Assembly (NCBI GenBank): GCA_030648005.1
Contig: JAUSIP010000016.1
Span: 1,110-65,109, forward strand
DNA length: 64,000 bases
Reading direction: 5' to 3'
From: a bacterium
GTDB lineage: Bacteria; Patescibacteriota; Minisyncoccia; Phycocordibacterales; UBA12445
A model generated the notes under the pieces. The model saw only the letters and a program-made list of their open reading frames with translations, ran no database searches and had not been told where the DNA came from. Position 1 is the stretch's first letter; each line of letters begins with the position of its first letter. Positions 6,811 to 21,164 of this stretch are shown here, one piece after another. The position numbers were made by a program, and so were the translations under genes.

Positions 6811-8076
6811 ATGAAGAGCAAGACAAGACAGATATATATGGACTATGCTTCTGCGACGCCTATTGATCCACGGGTGGCTAAGGTGATGCAGAAGTATGTG
6901 AGTGTAGAGTGTGGCAACCCGAGCTCGATACATTCTTTGGGTGTATCTGCCAAGCGGGCAGTGGAAGATTCAAGGAAGAAGATTGCAAATGTTTTGAATT
7001 GCCAGGCGAAAGAGATAATTTTTACTAGTGGAGGTACAGAGGGTGATAATTTGGCAGTGTTAGGCACAGTCAGGAGTATAAGGGAAAAGTATAAGTATAA
7101 GGGAGGACACATAATAACGACCGCGATAGAACATCAGGCGGTGTTGGCACCGTGCCGACAGCTTGAGAAAGAGGGTTTTGAAGTGACATATCTGCCGGTT
7201 TCTAAAGAGGGGATAGTTGATCCGGAGGATGTGAAGAAGGCTCTTCGGCCTGACACCTTTCTTGTTTCTGTGATGTATGCGAATAATGAGGTGGGGACTG
7301 TCCAGCCTATTTCTGAAGTCGCTAAGGTTATACGCCGCTTCAAGTCCGGAAGTAAGGAATTTAAATTCCCTGCTCTTCTGCCTGCCCATGCTAGGGCAGG
7401 CGAGCATAATAGTGAAAGCGCGATGAATTTTGAAACCCATTCTCCGCTTTTTCACGTTGATGCGTGTCAGGCGCCGGGAGCTTTATTACTTAATGTGGCC
7501 AAGTTAGGCGTTGACATGATGACTCTAAGCGGAGCTAAGATTTATGGTCCGAAAGGTGTTGGATGTTTGTATTTAAAAAGTGGAGTTGAAATTTCTCCTA
7601 TAATCTACGGCGGAGGACAGGAGAAGGGTTTAAGGTCTGGTACGGAAAATGTCGCCGGTATTGTCGGTATGGCCGAAGTCTTAGTGACAGCTGATTTTGA
7701 TAGAGAGAAAGAGGGGATTAGATTAAGTAAATTAAGAGACTATTTTGCTGAGAAAATTTTAGAAGTTGTTTCTGATTCCGAGATAAATGGAAGTATGGAC
7801 AAGAGACTACCAAATAATTTAAACGTTTATATTCCGGATATTGGTAATGAACAGCTAGTGATAGAGCTTGATGCTATAGGTGTGGCCGTCTCATCCGGAA
7901 GCGCTTGTAATACGAACGAAGAGGGAAGTTCGCATGTTATAGATGCACTCGGTTATGGCCATGAAAGAAGCAGGGGATCTATACGATTCAGTCTGGGTAA
8001 GAGCACAACAAAGAAAGATATTGATTTCGTTATAAAAAATCTACCGGGGATTTTGGGTCGCATCAGGTTTAACTAA
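6811..8076 (+). CDS. Cysteine desulfurase (class V aminotransferase, IscS/NifS-like)
   Basis: MDYASATPIDPRV...NPSSIHSLG...FTSGGTEGDN, PLP-lysine region SGAKIYGPKGVG, C-terminal SSGSAC active-site Cys. About 35-aa insertion (RRFKSGSKEFKFPALLPAHARAGEHNSESAMNFETHSPLF) before HVDACQAPG. True start may be the internal MDYAS Met. Confidence 0.8.
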   Translation: MKSKTRQIYMDYASATPIDPRVAKVMQKYVSVECGNPSSIHSLGVSAKRAVEDSRKKIANVLNCQAKEIIFTSGGTEGDNLAVLGTVRSIREKYKYKGGHIITTAIEHQAVLAPCRQLEKEGFEVTYLPVSKEGIVDPEDVKKALRPDTFLVSVMYANNEVGTVQPISEVAKVIRRFKSGSKEFKFPALLPAHARAGEHNSESAMNFETHSPLFHVDACQAPGALLLNVAKLGVDMMTLSGAKIYGPKGVGCLYLKSGVEISPIIYGGGQEKGLRSGTENVAGIVGMAEVLVTADFDREKEGIRLSKLRDYFAEKILEVVSDSEINGSMDKRLPNNLNVYIPDIGNEQLVIELDAIGVAVSSGSACNTNEEGSSHVIDALGYGHERSRGSIRFSLGKSTTKKDIDFVIKNLPGILGRIRFN

Positions 8077-8099
8077 GAATTAAGAATCAAATAAAGATT

Positions 8100-8148
8100 A
8101 AGCTGTTTTATTCTGACGGCCGTCAGAATAAAACAGCTTTCGGATTTT
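8100..8148 (+). terminator. Rho-independent terminator (perfect 20-bp stem)
   Basis: aagctgttttattctgacgg / ccgtcagaataaaacagctt then tcggatttttg. Confidence 0.75.
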
Positions 8149-8153
8149 TGACA

Positions 8154-8183
8154 ATAAAAAAAGGTCAGGGGGATTCCCTGACC
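8154..8183 (-). terminator. Rho-independent terminator for the GC-rich minus-strand gene
   Basis: ggtcaggg-ggattc-cctgacc hairpin; on the minus strand it is followed by a T7 run. Confidence 0.6.
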
Positions 8184-8202
8184 TTAGCACTCGAACCGAG
8201 TA

Positions 8203-8756
8203 CTACTTCTTCTGCTTGGACTTCTGTGCCGCCTTCTTCTTGGCTGCCTCCTGTGAGGACGACTGGATGGAGAGTCTCGAGGCCTTCGAATCGGCGTCGC
8301 GTTCCCGCTTGGCATCGGCTTCGCGCAGAGCGCGTGCTCGGCGTTCGGCCCGATTCCTTTCCTGCCGACCCGTCGTCACCTCCGGCTGGGCTTCGGTCTC
8401 GGACTTCAGCCCGGTGTAGGTCACGTGTCCCTTGAGAGACCGCAGGTCCCGCCAGAGGATGTTGAGACCACCACCGAAGCTGACCTTCGCGAGGTGACCC
8501 TGGATCTCCAGGACTCGGCCCTTGCCGTAGCTCGGGCGACCGACCGCGATGTCCTCCACCATGGGGTGGAAGACCGTGTCCGGCACCACCTCCAGGTTGG
8601 AGATGTGACACTTGACCACGCTCTTGCCGATACTGACCTCCGCGATGACCTTCTCGATGGACTCTCTAAGATCGACGGAATGGTGTTCACACGGCCCAGT
8701 ATGTTGCCGGGCATGCAGATGACGAGGTTGCCGGCACAGATGATGAGATTCTTCAT
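8203..8756 (-). pseudogene. GC-rich (over 60% GC, strong GC3 bias) foreign-composition gene with internal frameshift; product unrecognised (basic Lys/Ala/Arg-rich C-terminal tail)
   Basis: ATG at 8756 preceded by GGAGGA with 6-nt spacing. Frame A gives MKNLIICAGNLVICMPGNILGRVNTIPS, then frame B continues ...DLRESIEKVIAEVSIGKSVVKCHISNLEVVPDTVFHPMVEDIAVGRPSYGKGRVLEIQGHLAKVSFGGG... to the stop at 8203. Codon third positions are almost all G/C, unlike all neighbours. Confidence 0.5.
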
Positions 8757-8845
8757 GGGATGTCCTCCGTTGTACGATTCACGCCTGTTTGAGCAGTGTT
8801 AGCTCGCTCAGGTTTACTATTTCAATAGTTCAGAGTCTACTTTAT

Positions 8846-8874
8846 ATCATACACCAATGGGTCTATTTTGTCAA
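8846..8874 (-). promoter_or_regulatory. Sigma70-type promoter (TTGACA-17-TATGAT) for the GC-rich gene
   Basis: Minus-strand TTGACA at 8874-8869, 17-nt spacer, TATGAT at 8851-8846. Confidence 0.5.
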
Positions 8875-8913
8875 GTTTGGCCTTTTTAGTGGACTATTAT
8901 ATAATAATAAGCA

Positions 8914-9738
8914 ATGGAGGAGCTTAATAAAACCCAGATCGTCTTACTAACATTGTTCATAACATTTGTTACGTCTGTAACAACAGGTATTGTCACTGTG
9001 ACCCTTCTTCAGCAGGCTCCGCAAGGTGTTACTCAGACTATTAATAGGGTCGTTGAGCATACCATTGAGAAGATTACTCCTGTCACAACCAGAACGGAGA
9101 CAAGAGTTGTTGGACAGGAAGATGAGATCATAAAAACCGCATCATTAATTAAGCCTGCTATTGTGAGAATTACCTCTTCAGTTTCGACTGCTGTGGCATC
9201 TACTTCTGACGAGCAGCTTGCGGGGATTTTAGTAGCAACAAATTTAAGCGACAACGAGGTGGGTACCGGCTTCCTGGTCTCAAGCGATGGATTAGTCGCT
9301 ACGGCCTATTCAGTGATCCCTGACCACAATATAAGCTATGGAGTTTTTGTTGGAGACAAGAAGTATCAGGCCAATGTTATCATACACAATAAGAATGAAG
9401 GATTAGCTATACTTAAGATTGAACATGATAAAGCTACTAAGTTTGTCGCTCCGCAGTTTGCATCTAAACCTGTAACGTTGGGTCAGACCATCATAGTATT
9501 AGGTCGCGATCTTGATAGGTACACTGTGTCTGTCGGCCTGGTTGCTTCACTCAAGGAGGCAACTTTGTCGTCTTTGCCTATATTTAAAACCACTGTGAGG
9601 TCTGACAATACCAACATCGGCGGACCGCTACTTTCAAGTACAGGACAGGTTGTGGGTCTTAATCTTGAGAATGGTAATGCTTTGCCTATTGAATTAATCA
9701 AATCTGGTATGGCATCTACAACAAGGGCGACGAATTAA
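8914..9738 (+). CDS. Membrane-anchored trypsin-fold (HtrA/S1-like) protein with a degenerate catalytic triad (pseudoprotease)
   Basis: N-terminal TM helix. Aligns by eye to Do/HtrA protease blocks: TNNHVV is replaced by ATAYSVI, DIALI by GLAIL, GNSGGAL by TNIGGPL. The H/D/S positions are all substituted. Confidence 0.55.
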   Translation: MEELNKTQIVLLTLFITFVTSVTTGIVTVTLLQQAPQGVTQTINRVVEHTIEKITPVTTRTETRVVGQEDEIIKTASLIKPAIVRITSSVSTAVASTSDEQLAGILVATNLSDNEVGTGFLVSSDGLVATAYSVIPDHNISYGVFVGDKKYQANVIIHNKNEGLAILKIEHDKATKFVAPQFASKPVTLGQTIIVLGRDLDRYTVSVGLVASLKEATLSSLPIFKTTVRSDNTNIGGPLLSSTGQVVGLNLENGNALPIELIKSGMASTTRATN

Positions 9739-9740
9739 GT

Positions 9741-9768
9741 TTGACAAAATATCTAATTATCTTACAAT
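9741..9768 (+). promoter_or_regulatory. Sigma70-type promoter upstream of clpB
   Basis: TTGACA (9741-9746), 16-nt spacer, TACAAT (9763-9768). Confidence 0.5.
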
Positions 9769-9780
9769 CTTCATATTGCT

Positions 9781-12450
9781 ATGTTGCCATTCAATAACTT
9801 CACAACCAAAGCCAAAGAGGCCGTAAGGAAGGCTCATGAACTGGTTATAGAAAGAGGACAGAACCAGGTTGCGCCTATACATCTTCTTATTGCCTTGCTT
9901 ATCCAGGAAGATAGCCTCGTTCTGTCTATCCTTGATCGTTTGGAAGTAGATACTATTCTTCTGACTGATCACCTGATAGAGACTGTTGAGGGTGAAGCCG
10001 GTGGCAGTGTCTCAGCTCCAGCCTATCAGATATATCTGACGGCTGAGCTTGTTAAGGTGTTAGATATGGCGGCTAAGGCGGCGGCTTACTTGAAGGATGA
10101 ATTCATCTCTACTGAACATTTACTTGTGGCACTTCTTGATGTTCAGAGCCAGGCGCGCGATATACTCAATAAATTTAAAATTTCTAAAGATGAACTGCTT
10201 AAGATTTTGCAGGAGATCAAGAATGGCAAGATCACAGATGTAGTGCCAAAGAAGAAGGCGCATGCTCTGGAGCGGTACACTAGAAATCTTACAAGGCTTG
10301 CTCGTGAGGACAAGCTCGATCCTGTTATTGGACGAGATGAAGAGATCAGACGCGTGATGCAGATACTCTCAAGAAGGACCAAAAATAATCCTGTACTTAT
10401 AGGTGAGCCGGGTACTGGCAAGACCGCCGTGGCAGAAGGTTTGGCTAATAGAATTGCCAAAGGTGACGTACCGGATATTTTAAAGAATAAGGAGATAGTG
10501 TCTCTCGACATGGGGTCGCTGGTAGCTGGTACAAAGTACCGCGGAGAATTCGAAGAGAGGCTTAAGGGAATTTTAAAAGATGTAGAGAAGGCGAATGGCA
10601 ATATAATTCTATTCATAGATGAAATACACACCATCGTTGGAGCCGGTGCGGCTGAGGGCTCTATAGATGCGTCTAATATGTTGAAGCCTGCCCTTGCGCG
10701 CGGAGAGCTTCGTGCTATCGGAGCTACAACACTCAAGGAGTATCAGAAATATATTGAGAGAGACATGGCACTAGCCAGAAGATTCCAGCCGGTCTATGTA
10801 GGTGAGCCGAGTATTGAAGATGCAGTGGCGATACTTAGAGGTCTTCGGGATAGGTATGAGTTGCATCACGGTATTAAAATAAATGATGATGCGATCGTTG
10901 CGGCGGTCAACTTGAGCGCTAGATATATTGGAGACAGATTTTTGCCCGACAAAGCTATTGATCTTATAGATGAAGCTTCGGCTTCACTCCGGCTTTCGCT
11001 GGAAGACAAGCCAATGCTTCTTTTAGAGACCGACAAGAAGATTATGAGGCTTGAAGTTGAGAAGGAGGCGCTGAAGAAGGATGAGAGTGTAGATCAGAAG
11101 GCTGTTAAGACGCGCATAAAACAGATAGACAAAGAGGTCGGCGATCTACGAGAGACAACTTCCGAACTGGATAATCGCTGGAAAAATGAGAAGAAAAATA
11201 TTGTTGATACAAGGGCGATCAAGAAAGAACTTGAAGCTCTTCGGCTTGAGGCCGAAGCAGCGGAGATGCGCGCTGATTTAGGATTGGTGGCGGAGATCAG
11301 ATACGGCCGTATTCCACAGAAAGAGAGGGAGCTTAAGGAAACAGAGACAAAATTAAAGAAGCTTCAGAATAATAAGAGGATTTTGAAAGAAGAGGTAAAC
11401 GCAGAAGATATCGCCGGTGTAGTGTCTAAGTGGACAGGTATCCCAGTATTCCGAATGCTTGAGGAGGAAGTAGAGAAGTTGAAGAGAATGGAGGAAGAGC
11501 TTGCTAAGAGGGTTATCGGTCAGGCGGATGCAGTCAAGAAGGTTTCTGGTGCCATCAGACGCTCTCGTGCTGGTATTTCTGATCCAGACAGGCCAATAGG
11601 TTCATTCATGTTCTTGGGGCCCTCAGGTGTTGGCAAGACAGAACTTGCCAAGTCGCTGTCAGAGTTTATGTTTAACGATGAGAAGGCGATCATCCGCATA
11701 GATATGTCGGAATTCATGGAGAAGCACTCCGTGTCAAAGTTGATCGGCTCTCCGCCAGGCTATGTCGGTTATGAAGAGAGCGGTAAGCTGACAGAGATGG
11801 TTCGACATAGGCCGTACTCTATAATCCTCTTCGATGAGATCGAGAAGGCACATCCAGAGGTGTTTAACATACTCCTTCAGGTTCTTGATAATGGAAGGCT
11901 GACGGATTCTAAGGGACGAATCGTTAACTTCAAGAATACTGTTATAATTCTGACATCCAATATTGGATCCGAATATATCAGCAAGATGTCATCTATTGGC
12001 TTTGGTAACAATGCCATTAGCGACGGTTACGCTGAGACTAAAGATAAGATCCGAGATACTTTGAAAGACCACTTTAGGCCGGAGTTCTTGAATCGTCTGG
12101 ATGAGATCATAATCTTCGATACATTGAAGGACGAGACATTAAAGATGATTGTTGGTAACCAACTAAATATTGTAAGGAAGAGGCTGACAGACAAGGGGAT
12201 AGGTTTGGAGGTGAGTGATGAAGTTCTGATAAGCTTGGCGAAGGAGGGTTACAATCCAAATTACGGAGCGAGACCACTGAAGCGTTTGATTCAAACTAAA
12301 ATATTGAATCCAATATCAGAATTCTTGATCTCAAGCTCTGTAATATCCGGCTCTAGGATCTCCGTATATATGAAGAACGGCATTGTTGAAGTCGGTATTG
12401 TTTCCGGTGTGGCGAAAGCTAGACAGGCTAGGGTATCTAAGTTATCCTAG
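9781..12450 (+). CDS. clpB: ATP-dependent chaperone ClpB
   Basis: Clp N domain, two AAA+ modules ([15 protein letters not shown]; [14 protein letters not shown]), long middle coiled-coil typical of ClpB; 889 aa. Confidence 0.92.
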
Positions 12451-15365: not shown

Positions 15366-16379
15366 ATGCAGGGTATGAATCCTGAAGAGAACAGAGAAAG
15401 TAAGAATGGCCTGAGCCATTCGATATTTTGGATCGAGCTGGAGAAGATCAAACCGAATCCTTACCAGCCGAGGCACGAATTCGATCAGGCACAGTTGAAT
15501 GACTTGGCGGAGTCTATTCGTCAGTACGGGGTTCTTCAGCCCCTTGTTGCCACTAGGAAGGAGTTCAAGACAGAAGATGGCGGACTCGGTGTTGAATATG
15601 AGCTAATCGCTGGAGAGAGGCGTCTCCGTGCTTCGAAGATAGCAGGTATATCACAGGTGCCGGTGGTTATCAGGACAGGTGAGCAATCTGATCTTGTTAA
15701 ACTTGAGCTGGCGATAATTGAGAACATTCAAAGAGAGGATTTAAATTCAGTAGATCGAGCGCGCGCCTTCAAACAACTTGTAGATAAATTTAATTTCAAA
15801 CACGCAGAGATAGCCGTTAAGGTTGGTAAGAGCCGAGAATATGTCTCCAACACCATGAGGATTTTAGATTTGCCGGAGGAGATACTTGAGGCGGTGTCGG
15901 CCAAGAAGATTACCGAAGGACACACAAGGCCACTCTTGATGCTTATTGATCGCAAGGAAGAGCAGATGACGCTCTTCAAGGAGATCATGTACAAAAAGCT
16001 TTCAGTTAGGGAGGCAGAAAGCATCGCCAGGAAGATTGCGGTGGAGAAGGTTAGGAAGAAGGATTATGGCGTTGATCCGGAGATCATAGACTTGGAGTCG
16101 AAGCTGACGGAGAAGCTTGGTACTAGAGTTGCGATAGAGAAGAGGGAATTCGGCGGGCGAGTGACTATCGACTTCTTCTCCAAAGAGGACGTTCACAACC
16201 TCCTTAGTCTTATAACTTCAGGCAAGATTGCTGCTCCGGCGGATCTGGCGAAGTTTGCAAATGGAATAGCCTCCAATGCTCCGACCTCAGAGAACGGCGC
16301 GCCGATAGACGATGTGCCAAAAGCGGAGAAAGATATGGACGATCCTGATCTGTATTCTCTAAAAAATTTTAGCGTTTAA
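15366..16379 (+). CDS. parB: ParB/Spo0J-like partition protein with extended acidic C-terminal tail; no adjacent parA
   Basis: IELEKIKPNPYQPR...YELIAGERRLRASKIAG...VPVVIR ParB box; HTH region. Confidence 0.8.
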   Translation: MQGMNPEENRESKNGLSHSIFWIELEKIKPNPYQPRHEFDQAQLNDLAESIRQYGVLQPLVATRKEFKTEDGGLGVEYELIAGERRLRASKIAGISQVPVVIRTGEQSDLVKLELAIIENIQREDLNSVDRARAFKQLVDKFNFKHAEIAVKVGKSREYVSNTMRILDLPEEILEAVSAKKITEGHTRPLLMLIDRKEEQMTLFKEIMYKKLSVREAESIARKIAVEKVRKKDYGVDPEIIDLESKLTEKLGTRVAIEKREFGGRVTIDFFSKEDVHNLLSLITSGKIAAPADLAKFANGIASNAPTSENGAPIDDVPKAEKDMDDPDLYSLKNFSV

Positions 16380-16410: not shown

Positions 16411-16523
16411 CAATTTTTAATTTTTAATTTTGCAATTTTCAATGAATGTCGCAATGAATAAATGTTTAAAATATTGGAGCATTAAAAATTCATTGAAAAT
16501 TGTAAAATTAAAAATTTAAAATT
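16411..16523. repeat. AT-rich imperfect inverted repeat (about 35-nt arms, about 37-nt spacer) between the convergent parB and rel genes
   Basis: Left arm ...aattttgcaattttcaatgaatg; right arm cattgaaaattgtaaaattaaaaatttaaaa (about 21/22 matches in the core). Confidence 0.5.
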
Positions 16524-16537
16524 CTCTTCTGATTACG

Positions 16538-18046
16538 CTATCCTCGTTGGCTCTTTTTCTTTGACTCTTCTTGTTCGCCCAGAGCTGCTTTTATTTTTCT
16601 TCTTGCGAAACTCGTTTTGGCATATTCAAGCCACTTGTAAGTTGGCTTACTGTTCTCTCTGGATTGGATTTCTACGATATCTCTATTTTTAAGTACCGTA
16701 TCTAGTGACATAAACTTGCTGTTTATTTTTGCACCGGCCACATGATCGCCAAGATCTGAATGTATTGCATATGCGAAGTCGATAGCCGTTGAAGCTTGAG
16801 GTAGCTCTATGACGTCTCCCTTGGGAGTGAAGACGAAGATCTGATCCTGGAAGAAGTCCAGCTGGATGTTCTCCAAGAACTCCTTCGAGCCCTTCACTGT
16901 CTTCTGCCACTCGATCAGCTGATTTAGCCATCGTAGCTTCTTGCCCATTAATCCTCCTGAATCCGGCTTGCCTGATTCATCGTATGCCAAGTGTGAGGCG
17001 ATACCGTACTCGGCTTCGTTGTGCATCTTCTCTGTTCTGATCTGTACCTCCACCACTCCGCCGTCGCCGGTAAAAATAACAGTATGGATACTCTGGTAAC
17101 CGTTTATTTTGGGTACAGCAATGTAGTCTCTGAGTCTGTCAGGTAGAGGCCGCCAGGTATTGTGTATGATCCCGAGTACACGATAGCAATCTTCCACAGT
17201 TGGCACTATTATTCGCAGGGCCGCGATGTCATATATTTTAGTGAGGTCCATATTGTTCCTCTGGAGTTTCTTATACAAACTGTAATCGTGCTTGATACGA
17301 AAGTCGGTCGTCACTTTGGTCAGGTTCTCCTTTGCGAATCTTTTTCTAAGCTGCTTCTGTATATTTTCTAATTGCTCCAGAGCCTCCTGGTTTTTAATCT
17401 GTCTGATTTTTTTCGTCTCTTCATACTCTTTGGGATATGCATAAGGAAAGGCAGCATCTTCAAGTGCCCCCTTAATCTGTCCCATCCCTAGGCGATTGGC
17501 AATCGGAGCGTAGATTTCGATCGTCTCTGCGGCGATGCGTTTCTTTTTCTCCGGTTTGATGTGCTCGAGGGTCATTACGTTGTGAAGTCGATCCGCAAGC
17601 TTAATCAGTATCACTCGTACATCTTTGGCGGTGGCGATGAAGAGCTTTCGTAAGCTCTCAGCATGACGTTCTATTCCCTGGTACTTTATCTTAGCGAGTT
17701 TTGTCACACCTTGTACTAGAAAAAGTATGTCGGCGCCAAATTCTTTCTGTAGAATTTCCGGAGTTACTAATGTGTCCTCAATCGTGTCATGTAGAAGCCC
17801 GGCTGCTATTGTCTGGGCATCAGCCTGCATCATCTTGGCGAGATTCTTGGCTGTGCCGGTTAGATGTACAAAATACGGTTCGCCTGACAGCCGCATCTGC
17901 CCTTCGTGAGCCTTTTTTGCAAATTCGTACGCTGTAGATACAAGTTTAACATCCTCCGGCGCACCGGAGATCATGAGACTCAAAATTTCTTTAAGTGTAA
18001 CATTGGTTTCTCCATCCGGATTTTTATTTTTTAGTTCCTTTTCCAT
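16538..18046 (-). CDS. rel: Bifunctional (p)ppGpp synthetase/hydrolase Rel (HD + synthetase + TGS; lacks the C-terminal ACT/RRM region)
   Basis: HD motif LLHDTIEDT, synthetase block RIIVPTVEDCYRVLGIIHNTW, TGS block IFVFTPKGDVIELP. Start placed at the internal Met (MEKELK); the ORF is open to 18112 and would then overlap topA by 89 nt. Confidence 0.8.
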   Translation of the reverse strand: MEKELKNKNPDGETNVTLKEILSLMISGAPEDVKLVSTAYEFAKKAHEGQMRLSGEPYFVHLTGTAKNLAKMMQADAQTIAAGLLHDTIEDTLVTPEILQKEFGADILFLVQGVTKLAKIKYQGIERHAESLRKLFIATAKDVRVILIKLADRLHNVMTLEHIKPEKKKRIAAETIEIYAPIANRLGMGQIKGALEDAAFPYAYPKEYEETKKIRQIKNQEALEQLENIQKQLRKRFAKENLTKVTTDFRIKHDYSLYKKLQRNNMDLTKIYDIAALRIIVPTVEDCYRVLGIIHNTWRPLPDRLRDYIAVPKINGYQSIHTVIFTGDGGVVEVQIRTEKMHNEAEYGIASHLAYDESGKPDSGGLMGKKLRWLNQLIEWQKTVKGSKEFLENIQLDFFQDQIFVFTPKGDVIELPQASTAIDFAYAIHSDLGDHVAGAKINSKFMSLDTVLKNRDIVEIQSRENSKPTYKWLEYAKTSFARRKIKAALGEQEESKKKSQRG

Positions 18047-20240
18047 CTTCTTTTTTCTCTTCGAGTTTGTGCGGGTTGTGGTTTGGGCAAGTCTTATCGC
18101 TACACCTCTCACTGATAGTCTTCGTACCCGCCATCATTAAATGTGTACAAAGACCGTTCTCTCTTGGATAACCGCAGATCTTGCCAGTTGGTTTCGCTTT
18201 TATAATATGTTTGCAATCCGGATAGTTTGAACATCCGTAGAAAATACCGAACCGGCCTTTCTTCTCCACCATCTGTCCTTTCTTGCAAATCGGACAGATA
18301 ACCCCCGTGCCATGTTGTGCTAACATCGCTGCCTCATCCTTCTTAATGAATTTACATTTCGGATAGTTATTGCAAGAGATGAACTTACCGAATCTGCCTT
18401 CTCTTTCTACCAACATTCCGTCTTTACACTTCTCGCACTTCTCTCCTGTCTCTTTTGGCCCGGCCAGTTCGTTGCCTTCCATCGTACGAGCGCCGGTACA
18501 CTCAGGGAATTTAATACAAGAGTAGAACTTACCTGTACGTCCGAGCTTGATGATCATCAAACCTGCGCAAGTCGGACAGTTCATCCCTTCCGGCGCGTCG
18601 CCCATATTTGTGACTTTTAGAGAATCGTCTTTAGACTTAACCTCCTTCTGGAATGGTCCGTAGAAATCTTTCAAAGTTTTTGTATAATCCTTCTTGCCCT
18701 CAGCGATCTCATCCAGGTTCTCTTCCATCTCTGCGGTGAAGGTGTCGCTGATGATGTTACCGAAGTTGTTTTCTAAGAAGGTGCTGACGACATCTCCGGT
18801 GTCTGTTGGTTTTAAAGTTTTATTCTCTTTATCGACATAACCTCTGGCCTGGATAGTTGCAAGAATAGAAGCGAATGTACTCGGCCTTCCGATGCCTCTC
18901 TTCTCCAACTCTTTAATTAAGCCCGCTTCGCTATATCTGTTTGGTGGTTCAGTCTGTTTCTCTTGTGATGTCGTCTGAATTAGATCGAGTTTCTCGCCGA
19001 CAGCAACCTTCGGCAGTTCTACCTCTTCGCCTCGTGCGCCCGGATCAGCCAAGAGCCAGCCAGGGAAGAGGGTTCGTGAGCCGTTGACGTGGAAGTCGGG
19101 GATGGATTTGCTCTCAATATTTGAGATAATCTTGGTCTTCAATATCTCAGCGTCCTTCATCTGGCTTGCAACTGTCCTCTGCCAGATAAGTTTATATAAT
19201 TTATTTTCTTCTTCATTCTTGCCGGCATTGTCTCTTAAACTATTAGTTGGCCTGATCGCTTCATGCGCTTCTTGCGCGTTCTTGACTCGGCTCTTATATT
19301 GGCGAGATACATATAGTTCTGCGCCATAGATCTTCGTGATAGCACTTTTAATATTCTCCACTGCTTCAGCACCAAGGTTGGTACTATCAGTTCTCATATA
19401 AGATATGTGGCCCTCTTCATAAAGCTTCTGTGCGATTTTCATAGTTCGACTAGGGGAGAAACCGAAGCGAGAGCTGGCGCTCTGTTGAAGGGTTGATGTG
19501 GTGAAGGGCGCTCTCGGGTGCCGCATCCCTTTCTCCTCTTTTATTTCTGTAACTATCCACTGCTCCTTGTTGCCCTTAGTAAGAATTTTGTCCGCCTCTT
19601 CTTTAGTCTCCGGTTCCACCTCACAGGTTGAAGTTATTAGATCTTTACTTTTAGTTTTTGTATCGGCAGTTATTACAAAAAATGTCTTTGGTATAAAAGC
19701 CCGAATCTCACGTTCGCGTTCCATTATTATACGAAGGGCTGGGGACTGTACTCGGCCAGCAGAAAGACCATAACGCACCTTCTTCCAGATCAGTCCTGAT
19801 AAATCATAACCGACAAGTCTGTCTAATATTCTCCTGGCTTCTTGTGCTTTTCTTAGATCTTGGTCAATCTCGCGCGGATGCTGTATCGCCTCCTTCACCG
19901 CCTTCTCGGTGATCTCGTGGAAGACGACGCGCTTCGGATGCTTAAGGTCGCAGGCCTGCTCAATGTGCCAGGCTATAGCCTCACCCTCTCGATCAGGGTC
20001 TGTGGCAAGCAGAACTTCTTCCGCTTTCTTGGCTAACTGCTTGATTTCTGCCACAACATGTTCTTTACCTTTGGAAATTTCGTAATGGGGAATAAAGCCG
20101 CCGGGAATGTCGACTGCTTTCTTGTTGCTCTTCGGGAGATCTCGTATATGCCCGATACTTGCAACCACCTTGTATTTACCATCCAAGTACTTCGAAATAG
20201 TTTTTGCTTTGGCTGGTGACTCAACAATTAATAATTTCAT
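18024..20240 (-). CDS. topA: DNA topoisomerase I with C-terminal zinc-ribbon repeats
   Basis: MKLLIVESPAKAKTI...GHIRDL Toprim; catalytic-Tyr region; several C4 ribbons at the C-terminus. Confidence 0.9.
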   Translation of the reverse strand: MKLLIVESPAKAKTISKYLDGKYKVVASIGHIRDLPKSNKKAVDIPGGFIPHYEISKGKEHVVAEIKQLAKKAEEVLLATDPDREGEAIAWHIEQACDLKHPKRVVFHEITEKAVKEAIQHPREIDQDLRKAQEARRILDRLVGYDLSGLIWKKVRYGLSAGRVQSPALRIIMEREREIRAFIPKTFFVITADTKTKSKDLITSTCEVEPETKEEADKILTKGNKEQWIVTEIKEEKGMRHPRAPFTTSTLQQSASSRFGFSPSRTMKIAQKLYEEGHISYMRTDSTNLGAEAVENIKSAITKIYGAELYVSRQYKSRVKNAQEAHEAIRPTNSLRDNAGKNEEENKLYKLIWQRTVASQMKDAEILKTKIISNIESKSIPDFHVNGSRTLFPGWLLADPGARGEEVELPKVAVGEKLDLIQTTSQEKQTEPPNRYSEAGLIKELEKRGIGRPSTFASILATIQARGYVDKENKTLKPTDTGDVVSTFLENNFGNIISDTFTAEMEENLDEIAEGKKDYTKTLKDFYGPFQKEVKSKDDSLKVTNMGDAPEGMNCPTCAGLMIIKLGRTGKFYSCIKFPECTGARTMEGNELAGPKETGEKCEKCKDGMLVEREGRFGKFISCNNYPKCKFIKKDEAAMLAQHGTGVICPICKKGQMVEKKGRFGIFYGCSNYPDCKHIIKAKPTGKICGYPRENGLCTHLMMAGTKTISERCSDKTCPNHNPHKLEEKKEDGKGTKK

Positions 20241-20297: not shown

Positions 20298-21164
20298 TTA
20301 TAATTCCCTCTGAATTTTTCCTCCAAGTTCTTTAATCAGCCCCTTGATCTCCATCATTGAAAGCACGACATTTATCTCACTTGTTTTAATTTCAGATTCT
20401 CTAATCAAGTCATCACGTGTCATGGCTTCTACAGAGAGTAGTTTCATTACTTTAATTTCATTTTCGGAAAGAGTTGTTAAGTCTAATTCTTGTTGGCCAT
20501 CTTTCCTTGCAAGCGAGAGCGCTTCAAGTAGATCATCGCTGGAGCTGATCGGCGTGGCACCCTGTTTGATCAGTCTGTTTGTACCGTTCGAGTTTAAAGA
20601 GAAGATAGAGCCGGGAACTGCAAACAAGTCTTTATTGTATTCAGTTGCGAGTCTGGCAGTGATAAGCGTACCGGATTTATTTTGAGCTTCTATGACCAAG
20701 ATGGCCCGTGACATACCCGCCATGATCCTATTGCGAGCTGGAAAGGTGTGCGTGCCGGCAGGCATTAGTGGAGGCAGCTCAGAGAGCAGTGCACCGCCGG
20801 AGCGGACTATCTCGTCGGCCAAGTCTTTATTGGAGTGTGGATGCAGAACTTTCCTGTCCAAACCAGAACCGGGCACGCCTATCGTTGTGATGCCAGCCTG
20901 GAGTGCTGCTTTGTGAGCTATTGAGTCTATGCCGAGCGCCAAGCCGGATACAATCACAACTTTCTCGCCCCGCAAGCCTGCGATAATCTTCTCGCACGCC
21001 TCCTTGCCGTAGGTTGAAAACTTTCTTGAGCCAACTACTGTCAAAAAGATAAACTCCTCATCCGGCAGTACTCCTTCTAAATATAACTCTTTCGGCGGTT
21101 GAGGAATCTCAAAGAGTGATGCCGGAAATTCTTCTTTATTTAGTTTTCTAATCTGACCCTGCAT
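20298..21164 (-). CDS. dprA: DNA processing protein DprA/Smf
   Basis: VVGSRKFSTYG...VSGLALGIDSIAHKAAL...TIGVPGSGLD Rossmann-like DprA core. Confidence 0.8.
   Translation of the reverse strand: MQGQIRKLNKEEFPASLFEIPQPPKELYLEGVLPDEEFIFLTVVGSRKFSTYGKEACEKIIAGLRGEKVVIVSGLALGIDSIAHKAALQAGITTIGVPGSGLDRKVLHPHSNKDLADEIVRSGGALLSELPPLMPAGTHTFPARNRIMAGMSRAILVIEAQNKSGTLITARLATEYNKDLFAVPGSIFSLNSNGTNRLIKQGATPISSSDDLLEALSLARKDGQQELDLTTLSENEIKVMKLLSVEAMTRDDLIRESEIKTSEINVVLSMMEIKGLIKELGGKIQREL

Follow-up and report, generated by a model that had tools for sequence, protein, structure and literature searches.

The locus described here raises the question of how a single short gene can carry the codon usage of a much more GC-rich genome within patescibacterial DNA, and whether such a composition is the mark of a recent transfer or a property of the gene itself. 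The window, i.e., the whole 64-kb stretch of DNA that was analysed, has a GC content of 0.44, whereas the island at 8203-8756 on the minus strand reaches 0.61. When calculated over 300 nt at a time, GC peaked at 0.66 in the island, against a highest value of 0.57 elsewhere in the 64 kb. GC at the first, second and third codon positions (GC1/GC2/GC3) was 0.63/0.43/0.82 for 8676-8203 on the minus strand and 0.43/0.39/0.82 for the opening 28 codons, counted from the ATG at 8756. Host-gene GC3 was 0.46±0.044 with a maximum of 0.57, as determined on a machine-made list of 38 ORFs, each no shorter than 200 aa, most of them genuine host genes and a few of them spurious. The GC3 of the island lies more than 8 SD from this host ORF distribution, and its codon usage is close to that of a genome of 62-65% GC, favoring CTC/CTG, GTC/GTG, GCC/GCG, CGC/CGG, AAG and CAG. 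These sliding-window GC and GC3 profiles reproduced the contrast put forward by an earlier sequence-only reading, which had described a GC-rich island in a lower-GC context with G/C third positions on the minus strand; GC3 was the same on both sides of the frame switch discussed below. The peptides given in that reading also proved correct to the letter. No paper on GC3 or codon usage in Patescibacteria was retrieved by a literature search.

The neighbors of the island are nifS, a protease and clpB. As laid out in Table 1, the locus would form a self-contained single-gene unit comprising a promoter, a leader of ~83 nt with a stem-loop, a strong Shine-Dalgarno (SD) sequence, the CDS and an intrinsic terminator. 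The first inspection had suggested a single minus-strand gene equipped with a promoter, SD and terminator of its own and of host type, and all of these signals were located. Several of them recur in the two relatives found on contigs L081 and L082: the site equivalent to the promoter in L082 reads TTGACA-17-TATAAT, the SD is kept as GGGAGGA in L081 and AAGGAGGG in L082, and the terminators of both end in the same T-run but differ in their stems. The palindrome found beyond the island terminator would probably serve as a bidirectional terminator for the island gene and for the nifS-like gene that converges on it (6811-8076, plus strand), and a comparable palindrome in L082 has the same center, GACGGCCGTC, as that of the window. 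In GenBank, the gene is modeled as 8619-8203 only, with a GTG start and a product of 138 aa (MDO8493486.1), for which an exact-protein look-up gave no record. The GTG at 8619 lacks a properly spaced SD as judged from the sequence, and the 138-aa model probably covers only part of a gene of ~183 aa that is broken by the frameshift. Eight ORFs of at least 30 aa crowd into 8148-8802 on both strands, the antisense ones being expected from the high GC3.

Table 1. Features of the island locus, with positions in the window.
Feature	Positions	Strand	Remarks
Sigma-70-type promoter, TTGACA (8874-8869), 17-nt spacer, TATGAT (8851-8846)	8846..8874	-	11/12 consensus matches
5' leader, ~83 nt	8757..8839	-	Measured from a putative transcription start
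Conserved leader stretch	8757..8819	-	~91% identical between the window and L081
Leader stem-loop, CCUG-AGC-GAGC-(UAACACU)-GCUC-AAA-CAGG	8784..8812	-	Present in both MFE and centroid predictions for the window and for L082
Leader core, 33 nt, GCGAGCTAACACTGCTCAAACAGGCGTGAATCG	8775..8807	-	100% identical between the window and L081
Shine-Dalgarno, GGAGGA	8763..8768	-	6 nt before ATG 8756, read from the sequence
CDS part 1, frame of ATG 8756, MKNLIICAGNLVICMPGNILGRVNTIPSIL...	8668..8756	-	GC3 0.82; aligns to P0002 residues 14-41
(AG)3 dinucleotide run, proposed +2 frameshift site	8662..8667	-	AG deletion gives a single 183-aa ORF ...NTIPSILESIEKVIAEVS...
CDS part 2, -1 frame, ...SIEKVIAEVSIGKSVVKCH...KKKAAQKSKQKK	8203..8661	-	Stop TAG 8205-8203
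Intrinsic terminator of the island gene, AAGGTCAGGG-aatcc-CCCTGACCTT then T-run	8154..8185	-	10-bp hairpin, 8185-8161 with T-run
Perfect 20+20-nt palindrome	8100..8139	.	Beyond the island terminator, toward the nifS-like gene

Between ~8696 and 8666, the high-GC codon phase leaves the frame of ATG 8756 and continues in the -1 frame, so that the two-frame reading is backed by composition as well as by translation. The alignment of the homologous protein P0002 with the query (E=3e-30) covers query residues 2-185 in one piece across the frameshift, and P0003 has its architecture in common with P0002. The internal frameshift noted at the outset thus finds support in these two intact single-ORF proteins, the first of which aligns across both halves of the gene. 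It is private to this assembly, both relatives being single intact ORFs that span its position. The alignment to P0002 confines the indel to ~8662-8690, its exact placement being putative, and a change from (AG)2 to (AG)3 at 8667-8662 would be the simplest source of the +2 frameshift in this metagenome-assembled genome (MAG). The assembled allele would then yield ~30 native residues followed by ~81 out-of-frame residues.

It had been argued beforehand that, if relatives had this gene with an intact single frame and an unchanged composition, the frameshift would be a sequencing error. Such relatives exist, but the error is not thereby proved. A gene intact in the organism and broken by an assembly or consensus error is a rather unlikely, although by no means negligible, explanation. 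It fits the uninterrupted frame of both relatives, the restoration of the ORF by removal of 2 nt and the GC3, which is equally high on either side of the shift, so that any real frameshift mutation must be very recent. However, the site has no homopolymer, only the (AG)3 run, and the other genes examined in the 64 kb have their full length and cover their Pfam domains completely, which indicates that the assembly is not indel-prone. The allele carried by this MAG is read as probably a fresh pseudogene, an assembly indel appearing less likely.

The broken frame could also be explained by programmed -1 ribosomal frameshifting, or by a locus that encodes a structured non-coding RNA and no protein, but both are very improbable. 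The frame change is formally -1; nevertheless, the region 8660-8700 contains no slippery heptamer of the form X XXY YYZ, and the homologues P0002 and P0003 are encoded in a single frame, for which no frameshift is needed. The GC-rich RNA folds strongly (z = -1.8, -1.6 and -3.4 after dinucleotide shuffling), but a codon-shuffle control takes away most of this signal, GC1/GC2/GC3 are strongly three-periodic, the ORFs are conserved with a dN/dS of ~0.5, and Rfam yields no match. Indeed, a search of the window with Rfam 15 returned nothing in 7000-10000 at E<=1 and one chance miRNA match elsewhere, and its only matches at gathering score were four tRNAs, none of them near the island.

Homologues were searched exhaustively over 1.84 billion representative proteins and 5.8 billion clusters, then with profiles. 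The family amounts to three copies, i.e., that of the window and one relative on each of the Logan contigs L081 and L082, with proteins of 164-193 aa; it is a new family, with three members among ~15 billion proteins. In both contigs, the island gene is convergent with the same nifS-like gene as in the window, and the succession of low-GC flank, GC-rich CDS and low-GC flank is repeated, with a GC3 of 0.88/0.82 in the island against 0.44/0.51 in nifS. Antisense ORFs exist at all three loci, to an extent that differs among them. The three copies appear to belong to closely related, Paceibacteria-like Patescibacteria, the host identity and upstream context of L081 and L082 (~1.1 kb each) resting on ~90 nifS codons. 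Elsewhere in Paceibacteria, the gene next to nifS is a trypsin-like protease or clpB, and no gene separates nifS from the protease in L017, L028 and L053. The island gene therefore seems to be an insertion at this point, and the question whether the gap is otherwise a short intergenic one, which had been raised with the first inspection, is answered by this uninterrupted nifS-protease junction.

The same contigs bear on the suggestion that the window is a chimeric contig or holds a contaminating GC-rich fragment. Such an artefact would explain why the compositional borders are sharp. However, the composition changes at the start codon and at the stop codon of the GC-rich island CDS, which is joined directly to a promoter, leader, SD and terminator of low GC, and the arrangement was recovered next to the same host gene in two independent assemblies obtained from different runs, SRR22388166 and SRR22387919. 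A chimera is hence barely credible, and this part of the sequence-only reading was abandoned.

The recent horizontal acquisition favored by that reading, i.e., an un-ameliorated and now decaying gene from a high-GC donor, was not supported either and is considered improbable. Three observations speak for it: a codon usage like that of a genome of ~62-65% GC, the lack of the gene between nifS and the protease in less closely related Paceibacteria, and the frameshift in this MAG. Against it, the gene is found with the same elevated GC3 (0.82-0.88 in all three copies) at the same nifS-convergent site in three lineages, L081 and L082 being the closest available relatives, while the synonymous sites of nifS are near saturation, with a third-position identity of 48/41/33% for the three pairs. 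For these same pairs, amino-acid identity was 87/74/69% in the C-terminal part of nifS and 51/40/40% in the island protein. Since identity is lower for the island protein than for nifS (51% vs 87%), the copies were not recently exchanged, and the agreement of the identity ranks fits vertical co-divergence. Besides, half of the same-amino-acid codon differences in the island are C<->G (16/32, against 3/37 in nifS), i.e., the sites turn over and yet stay G/C.

Composition and context were also compared with what is expected of a transferred islet. The composition is atypical of the host, but presence is not patchy, the family lies within one clade instead of including a donor-lineage homologue of matching composition, and amelioration is not apparent in this small sample. 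No donor family was found among ~15 billion public proteins and no homologue in any high-GC genome, phage or plasmid of the collections searched. Peptide patterns detected no relatives in GTDB genomes, JGI metagenome contigs or IMG/VR, nor did tblastn against GenBank phages and PLSDB plasmids, and PADLOC, NCBIfam and PHROGs gave nothing significant for anti-phage defence, phage or NCBI-named families. The surroundings of the island include no integrase or transposase, no tRNA target (the four tRNAs of the window are not close), and no direct or otherwise meaningful flanking repeats. An ancient transfer into the common ancestor would leave the retained composition unexplained.

A neutral-decay calculation places the GC3 of the island at no more than 0.57-0.66 even from an ancestor with a GC3 of 1.0, against the observed 0.82-0.88; the model is a simple two-state one based on the same ~90 nifS codons, and its upper bootstrap limits of 0.75-0.80 come near the observed values. 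Because the observed GC3 exceeds this bound, the GC richness looks maintained and not left over from a recent transfer. The extreme GC3 would accordingly be a heritable, stationary trait of the gene family.

Alternatively, the locus could work by cassette exchange, the leader and the 3' tail with its terminator serving as recombination arms through which GC-rich alleles are imported from an unsampled reservoir such as a phage or the host of an episymbiont. This scheme would match the conserved flanks and variable center, with 91-100% identity in the leader and ~94% in the last ~60 nt of the CDS against 55-60% in between, as well as the persistently foreign composition. However, the public protein and contig collections searched contain no reservoir sequence, and the ranking of island identities mirrors that of nifS. 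The identity of the tail is largely a matter of composition, as it is rich in K, Q and E, each with essentially one permitted, G-ending codon. Cassette exchange is thus given a slim chance. A diversity-generating retroelement target was rejected as well, since the 64-kb window, out of a contig of 108 kb, contains neither a repeat nor a template of the island, no part of which has a second copy there.

If the composition is inherited, as preferred here, a locus-specific force would hold GC3 up, e.g., selection for G+C in the DNA or mRNA, or GC-biased gene conversion. Translational selection for host-optimal codons was rejected, the GC3 of host rpsD (S4) and rpoA being ordinary (0.41 and 0.48). 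So was a conserved mRNA fold as the cause of the high G+C: when synonymous codons were shuffled in the three copies, no consistent specific fold emerged (z = -0.55, -0.63 and -2.27).

The leader is more conserved than the gene it precedes. Its identity between the window and L081 (Table 1) compares with ~80% in the 3' end of nifS and ~60% in the island CDS. The hairpin of the L082 leader is GCCCG-C-GAGC-(AACC)-GCUC-CAA-CGGGC, while in L081 the inner GAGC/GCUC stem alone is predicted, the outer CCU/AGG pairing being our own reading of the sequence. One compensatory change (U:A to C:G) was found in the outer stem of L082, as the sole covarying pair among the three sequences, for which the folding z-scores of the leader were not significant. 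Rfam 15 gave no match at gathering score on L081 and L082, and the leader core is absent from IMG/VR. The hairpin may be regarded as a candidate operator for autoregulation. It is tentatively proposed, at somewhat short of even odds, that synonymous sites are actively held at ~85% G+C in genomes of ~44% GC, past the saturation of nifS, and that this maintenance is coupled to the ultra-conserved leader hairpin.

The protein is predicted to consist of an all-beta N-terminal region and a long R/K-rich C-terminal helix ending in KKKAAQK(S/A)KQKK, the tail conserved in P0002 and P0003 being ERNRA..R...SKASRL..SQEAAKKKA.QK.KQKK. Its N-terminal half probably folds into two SH3/KOW-like barrels. Matches below significance were obtained with the Pfam MSSS SH3 domain in two members (E=0.037 and 0.1) and with Tudor_1_RapA (E=0.06), and a PDB profile search pointed to the KOW region of eS4 only, also below significance (E=0.27). 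This is in line with the initial view of an unrecognised product with, at most, the flavor of a small beta-barrel, and the protein profiles of Pfam, PHROGs, NCBIfam and PADLOC returned nothing significant. AlphaFold models from the single sequence and from the three-sequence alignment had a pLDDT of 47 and 54, respectively; the C-terminal helix alone was confident, and the beta region stayed below 55 with AF2. An internal duplication of the N-terminal half was judged unconvincing, as hhalign of the two halves gave P=0.033. Binding of a nucleic acid (RNA, ribosome or DNA) would be the most likely biochemical role.

Taken together, the preferred reading, with a probability of roughly 0.55, is that of a rare clade-restricted gene unit, frameshifted in this MAG, with a stationary, inherited high GC3 and a product that probably binds nucleic acids. 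Should it hold with more genomes, it would be a clean natural example of a single bacterial gene far from the compositional equilibrium of its genome. The locus, of ~550 bp and with a conserved leader, would be tractable for studying the maintenance of synonymous G+C by selection, biased gene conversion or RNA function. Candidate forces would be G+C selection on mRNA or DNA, a local gene-conversion hotspot, and a partner organism of high GC in which the gene is expressed or with which it is exchanged.

Known systems resemble the locus in part. The protein shares with SH3/KOW/Tudor barrels (eS4 KOW, MutS2/Smr SH3 PF20297, RapA Tudor-like PF18339) the hairpin motifs G-x-V-L-E-[IV]-x-G-x-x-x-K-V and a basic extension, but its matches (E=0.04-0.27) fall below significance and short of every family threshold, and confidence in its models is low. 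Similarly to the leaders of autoregulated ribosomal proteins, a hairpin more conserved than the CDSs lies upstream of the SD of a small basic protein; it differs from them in having no Rfam match and only one covarying pair.

Compositionally atypical ORFan genes or islets are usually read as ameliorating horizontal transfers, following the concept of Lawrence and Ochman, and atypical GC and codon usage are routinely taken as a sign of recent transfer that is dated by the extent of amelioration. The island gene looks like such an islet in being a short, lineage-restricted gene of host-foreign composition and codon usage between conserved housekeeping genes. It departs from one in that no donor family was found, mobility genes, a tRNA and flanking repeats are missing, three synonymous-saturated lineages show no drift of composition toward the host, and the native expression signals are more conserved than the CDS. 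In the present case, three diverged lineages seem to have inherited the atypical composition and kept it stationary, no donor being detectable, and compositional foreignness may thus, if this is true, be a stable selected trait and not a transfer clock. Codon-usage amelioration has been discussed previously (PMC8461475), and GC-biased gene conversion, or selection for synonymous G+C, has been considered in bacteria (Lassalle et al., 2015; PMC4450053), where the reported effects consist of a modest, genome-wide correlation of recombination with GC3 (PMC4450053). In line with such processes, GC3 lies above the mutational equilibrium, the excess is confined to the gene, and sites turn over while staying G/C. 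Unlike them, a single gene of ~550 bp stands ~0.4 GC3 units above its genome, which, if confirmed, would point to a strong gene-local force not earlier described at such magnitude in bacteria.

The minus-strand island gene (8203-8756) has a GC content of 61%, as against 44% for the window, and contains the richest 300-nt stretch (0.66), the rest of the 64 kb staying at or below 0.57. The enrichment is three-base periodic, with GC1/GC2/GC3 of 0.63/0.43/0.82 over 8676-8203 (-) and 0.43/0.39/0.82 over the initial 28 codons of the ATG 8756 frame, compared with a host GC3 of 0.46 ± 0.044 (maximum 0.57; 38 ORFs of 200 aa or more in a mechanical listing, the majority real host genes and a few spurious). 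Hence, the GC-rich island in low-GC surroundings described in the sequence-only reading is real and not an artefact, and the ORFs piled up on both strands are, as it had supposed, an expected by-product of scarce stop codons. The second-highest GC peak (20600-21000, 0.57 per 300 nt) was rejected as another island, as it belongs to an ordinary dprA gene (GC3 0.47).

Features of the island gene and its surroundings
Feature	Position	Strand	Remark
rbfA, infB, DUF4446 gene			nifS side of the island; ordinary flanking genes
nifS-like cysteine desulfurase (nifS)	6811-8076	+	flanks the island
Perfect palindrome, 40 nt	8100-8139		20+20, loopless; between nifS and island gene
10-bp hairpin and T-run	8185-8161	-	terminator
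(AG)3 run	8667-8662	-	within the frameshift interval
Shine-Dalgarno GGAGGA	8768-8763	-	6 nt upstream of ATG 8756
Nested stem-loop	8812-8784	-	CCUG-AGC-GAGC-(loop)-GCUC-AAA-CAGG; within leader core
Promoter TTGACA-17-TATGAT	8874..8846	-	
Trypsin-like protease	8914-9738	+	other flank, with clpB
topA, relA/spoT, dprA, parB, rpsD, rpoA, serS			farther along the window; all full-length

The top matches of nifS among 185,579 GTDB species representatives (Paceibacteria/Patescibacteria) reach only 49% identity, and clpB matches Paceibacterota at 66-68%; the host is thus a poorly sampled Patescibacteria lineage. The GenBank record reads "MAG: bacterium", and its only annotation on the island is a 138-aa ORF from GTG 8619 (MDO8493486.1). 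In three Paceibacteria loci (L017, L028, L053), nifS, the trypsin-like gene and clpB follow one another with no gene between, the smallest gap being an overlap of the matches by 2 nt and the largest an estimated 120-140 bp, and in three other such loci (L043, L018, L029) clpB comes next after nifS. Therefore, compared with the wider clade, the 838-bp interval between nifS and the protease is an insertion. Elsewhere in the window, a 36-nt AT-rich inverted repeat (16412-16523, 94% complementary, 40-nt spacer) sits between parB (15366-16379) and a relA/spoT-like gene. The mechanically listed ORFs of the latter and of topA, 16538-18112 and 18024-20240 (-), overlap by 89 nt; because both domain sets are complete these are two genes and not one frameshifted gene, and the GTG listed as the start of the relA/spoT-like ORF probably lies too far upstream.

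The island gene is a compositionally atypical ORFan. A word-indexed search returned only the query itself, phmmer, run exhaustively against 1.84 billion representative proteins, gave one further protein, P0002 (193 aa, E=3e-30), aligned in a single stretch with residues 2-185 of the frameshift-corrected query, and P0003 (164 aa) emerged from a search with a profile, a third profile search bringing no additional members. Both are encoded on short Logan contigs from different runs (L081, SRR22388166, and L082, SRR22387919, respectively), where the gene converges on the 3' end of a nifS whose C-terminus is 87% (L081) and 74% (L082) identical to that of the window, far above any GTDB representative. 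Their coding sequences have a GC3 of 0.88 and 0.82, versus 0.44 and 0.51 in their own nifS fragments, and are flanked by low-GC promoter, leader and terminator regions. A chimeric contig, which the sequence-only reading had offered as an alternative, is excluded by this shared arrangement.

Between about 8696 and 8666 the high-GC phase leaves the ATG 8756 frame for the -1 frame, so that composition by itself supports a reading in two frames, and alignment to P0002 across both halves confirms the suspected internal frameshift, limiting its position to about 8662-8690. The N-terminal 28 residues of the ATG frame, aligned to P0002 residues 14-41, are thereby a genuine part of the protein. The change can be described as a gain of two bases or a loss of one; removal of one AG gives a single 183-aa ORF (...GRVNTIPSILESIEKVIAEVS...) in which the GRVNTIPSILESIEKVIAEVS stretch aligns well with ...GYVMETLDGASGDKALVRVS... 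of P0002. Programmed frameshifting is unlikely, because no slippery heptamer is present at the site and the relatives are unshifted. As assembled, the predicted product from the strong ATG would comprise ~30 native and ~81 out-of-frame residues, ending at a stop at 8421, and the annotated GTG 8619 start is without a suitably spaced Shine-Dalgarno sequence. Since both relatives have a single intact frame, the shift is private to this assembly, where it could be an assembly indel; a real and very recent mutation is favoured by roughly two to one because the window's remaining genes are intact.

The host-type promoter, Shine-Dalgarno sequence and terminator hairpin claimed for the gene are all in place. 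The palindrome downstream of it is probably a bidirectional terminator; a different palindrome occupies the equivalent place in L082 (~725-770) with the same centre, GACGGCCGTC, which could be a protein site. Back-to-back with the island promoter lies that of the protease (TTGGCC-17-TATAAT, in 8877-8914), whose -10 element stops 8 nt short of ATG 8914, so that the mRNA would be leaderless or near-leaderless. From ~8819 to the ATG, the island leader differs between the window and L081 by 5 substitutions and 1 indel in ~65 nt, and its core (8807-8775, 33 nt) is identical, compared with identities of ~80% for the neighbouring nifS coding sequence and ~60% for the island coding sequence. The L082 leader has diverged, yet GAGC/GCUC and the outer stem GCCCG/CGGGC are kept, the latter with one compensatory change relative to the window (U:A to C:G). 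The predicted L081 fold retains the inner stem only, and folding z-scores are non-significant in the three sequences. The leader has no match in Rfam or IMG/VR, and no second copy was found within the window. Being non-coding yet more conserved than the adjoining housekeeping gene, this segment would most simply, on thin evidence, be a functional RNA or a DNA operator.

At the protein level, dN/dS is ~0.5 overall (dN 0.48, dS 0.89; N-domain dS 1.14), and the C-terminal tail is better conserved (70% amino-acid identity). In all three members the N-terminal half is all-β and carries a pair of G-x-V-L-E-[IV]-x-G-x-x-x-K/V hairpin motifs; it is followed by a linker that varies and by a conserved T/Q-E-R-N-R-x-x-R-R...AKR.RD...SKASRL...QEAAKKKAxQKxKQKK segment, which AlphaFold models as one long helix, the sole confident part of the models. 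Matches to MSSS SH3 (E=0.037 and 0.1, two members), RapA Tudor (0.06) and the eS4 KOW region (PDB, E=0.27), the sole hints of a fold, are all sub-threshold, in line with the earlier description of an unrecognised product with a small β-barrel or KOW flavour at most. Defence, phage and NCBI families gave no match to the island protein, and no signal peptide was found in P0002 or P0003. Tentatively, and with low confidence, the product is taken to be a small protein of the cytoplasm that binds nucleic acid and may regulate itself via the leader.

Recent horizontal acquisition, the other proposal of the sequence-only reading, is disfavoured by the divergence of the three copies. Pairwise identities rank alike for nifS (87/74/69%) and for the island protein (51/40/40%), which is the more diverged, arguing that the copies diverged alongside their hosts, with no recent exchange among them. 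Third positions of nifS are near saturation (identities of only 48%, 41% and 33%), and GC3 stays at 0.82-0.88 in all three island copies. Where the window and L081 share the encoded amino acid, 32 of 90 island codons differ, half of them (16/32) by C↔G swaps, versus 3/37 in nifS; third positions have turned over while remaining G or C. According to a two-state decay model calibrated on nifS third positions (~85 codons), neutral drift toward the host equilibrium would, even from an ancestral GC3 of 1.0, give 0.57-0.66 now, with upper bootstrap limits of 0.75-0.80, and all three observed values lie above, which, given so small a calibration set, is suggestive, not conclusive, against neutral decay. 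No donor family was found in any protein, contig, phage or plasmid collection searched. Given the model and this last result, recent, un-ameliorated transfer is the weaker reading. In its place stands a tiny clade-specific family, documented by only three sequences (a pair of these from contigs of 1 kb), in which conservation between lineages extends to the GC-rich synonymous sites and to the leader RNA; the MAG allele is read as a freshly frameshifted copy. The probability assigned to active maintenance of GC3 in this family is about 0.4.

Translational selection for host-preferred codons is an unlikely cause, because GC3 is ordinary in the host rpsD (0.41) and rpoA (0.48); island codon usage resembles that of a genome of ~62-65% GC, including an unremarkable use of GAA and GGT/GGA. 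A specific mRNA fold is unsupported: folding z-scores of the three sequences were -1.8, -1.6 and -3.4 against dinucleotide shuffles and only -0.55, -0.63 and -2.27 against synonymous-codon shuffles. The remaining candidates are general selection for G+C at the DNA or mRNA level, recurrent import from an unsampled reservoir, and GC-biased gene conversion acting locally, which in bacteria is documented at the scale of whole genomes (PMC4450053). Two other Patescibacteria loci retrieved via nifS also carry GC-rich Pfam-less ORFs, with no relation to the island protein and no Rfam hit. One, in Magasanikbacteria (L010:1660-2346 (-)), has a GC3 of 0.67 versus 0.26-0.28 in its neighbours, with a promoter-like site of its own and, read by eye, a hairpin with T-run, where a terminator scan found none; the other (L002:9327-11822 (+), 831 aa) has a GC3 of 0.82 versus 0.37 in its neighbour. 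Orphan genes that combine GC richness with native signals may be recurrent in CPR genomes.
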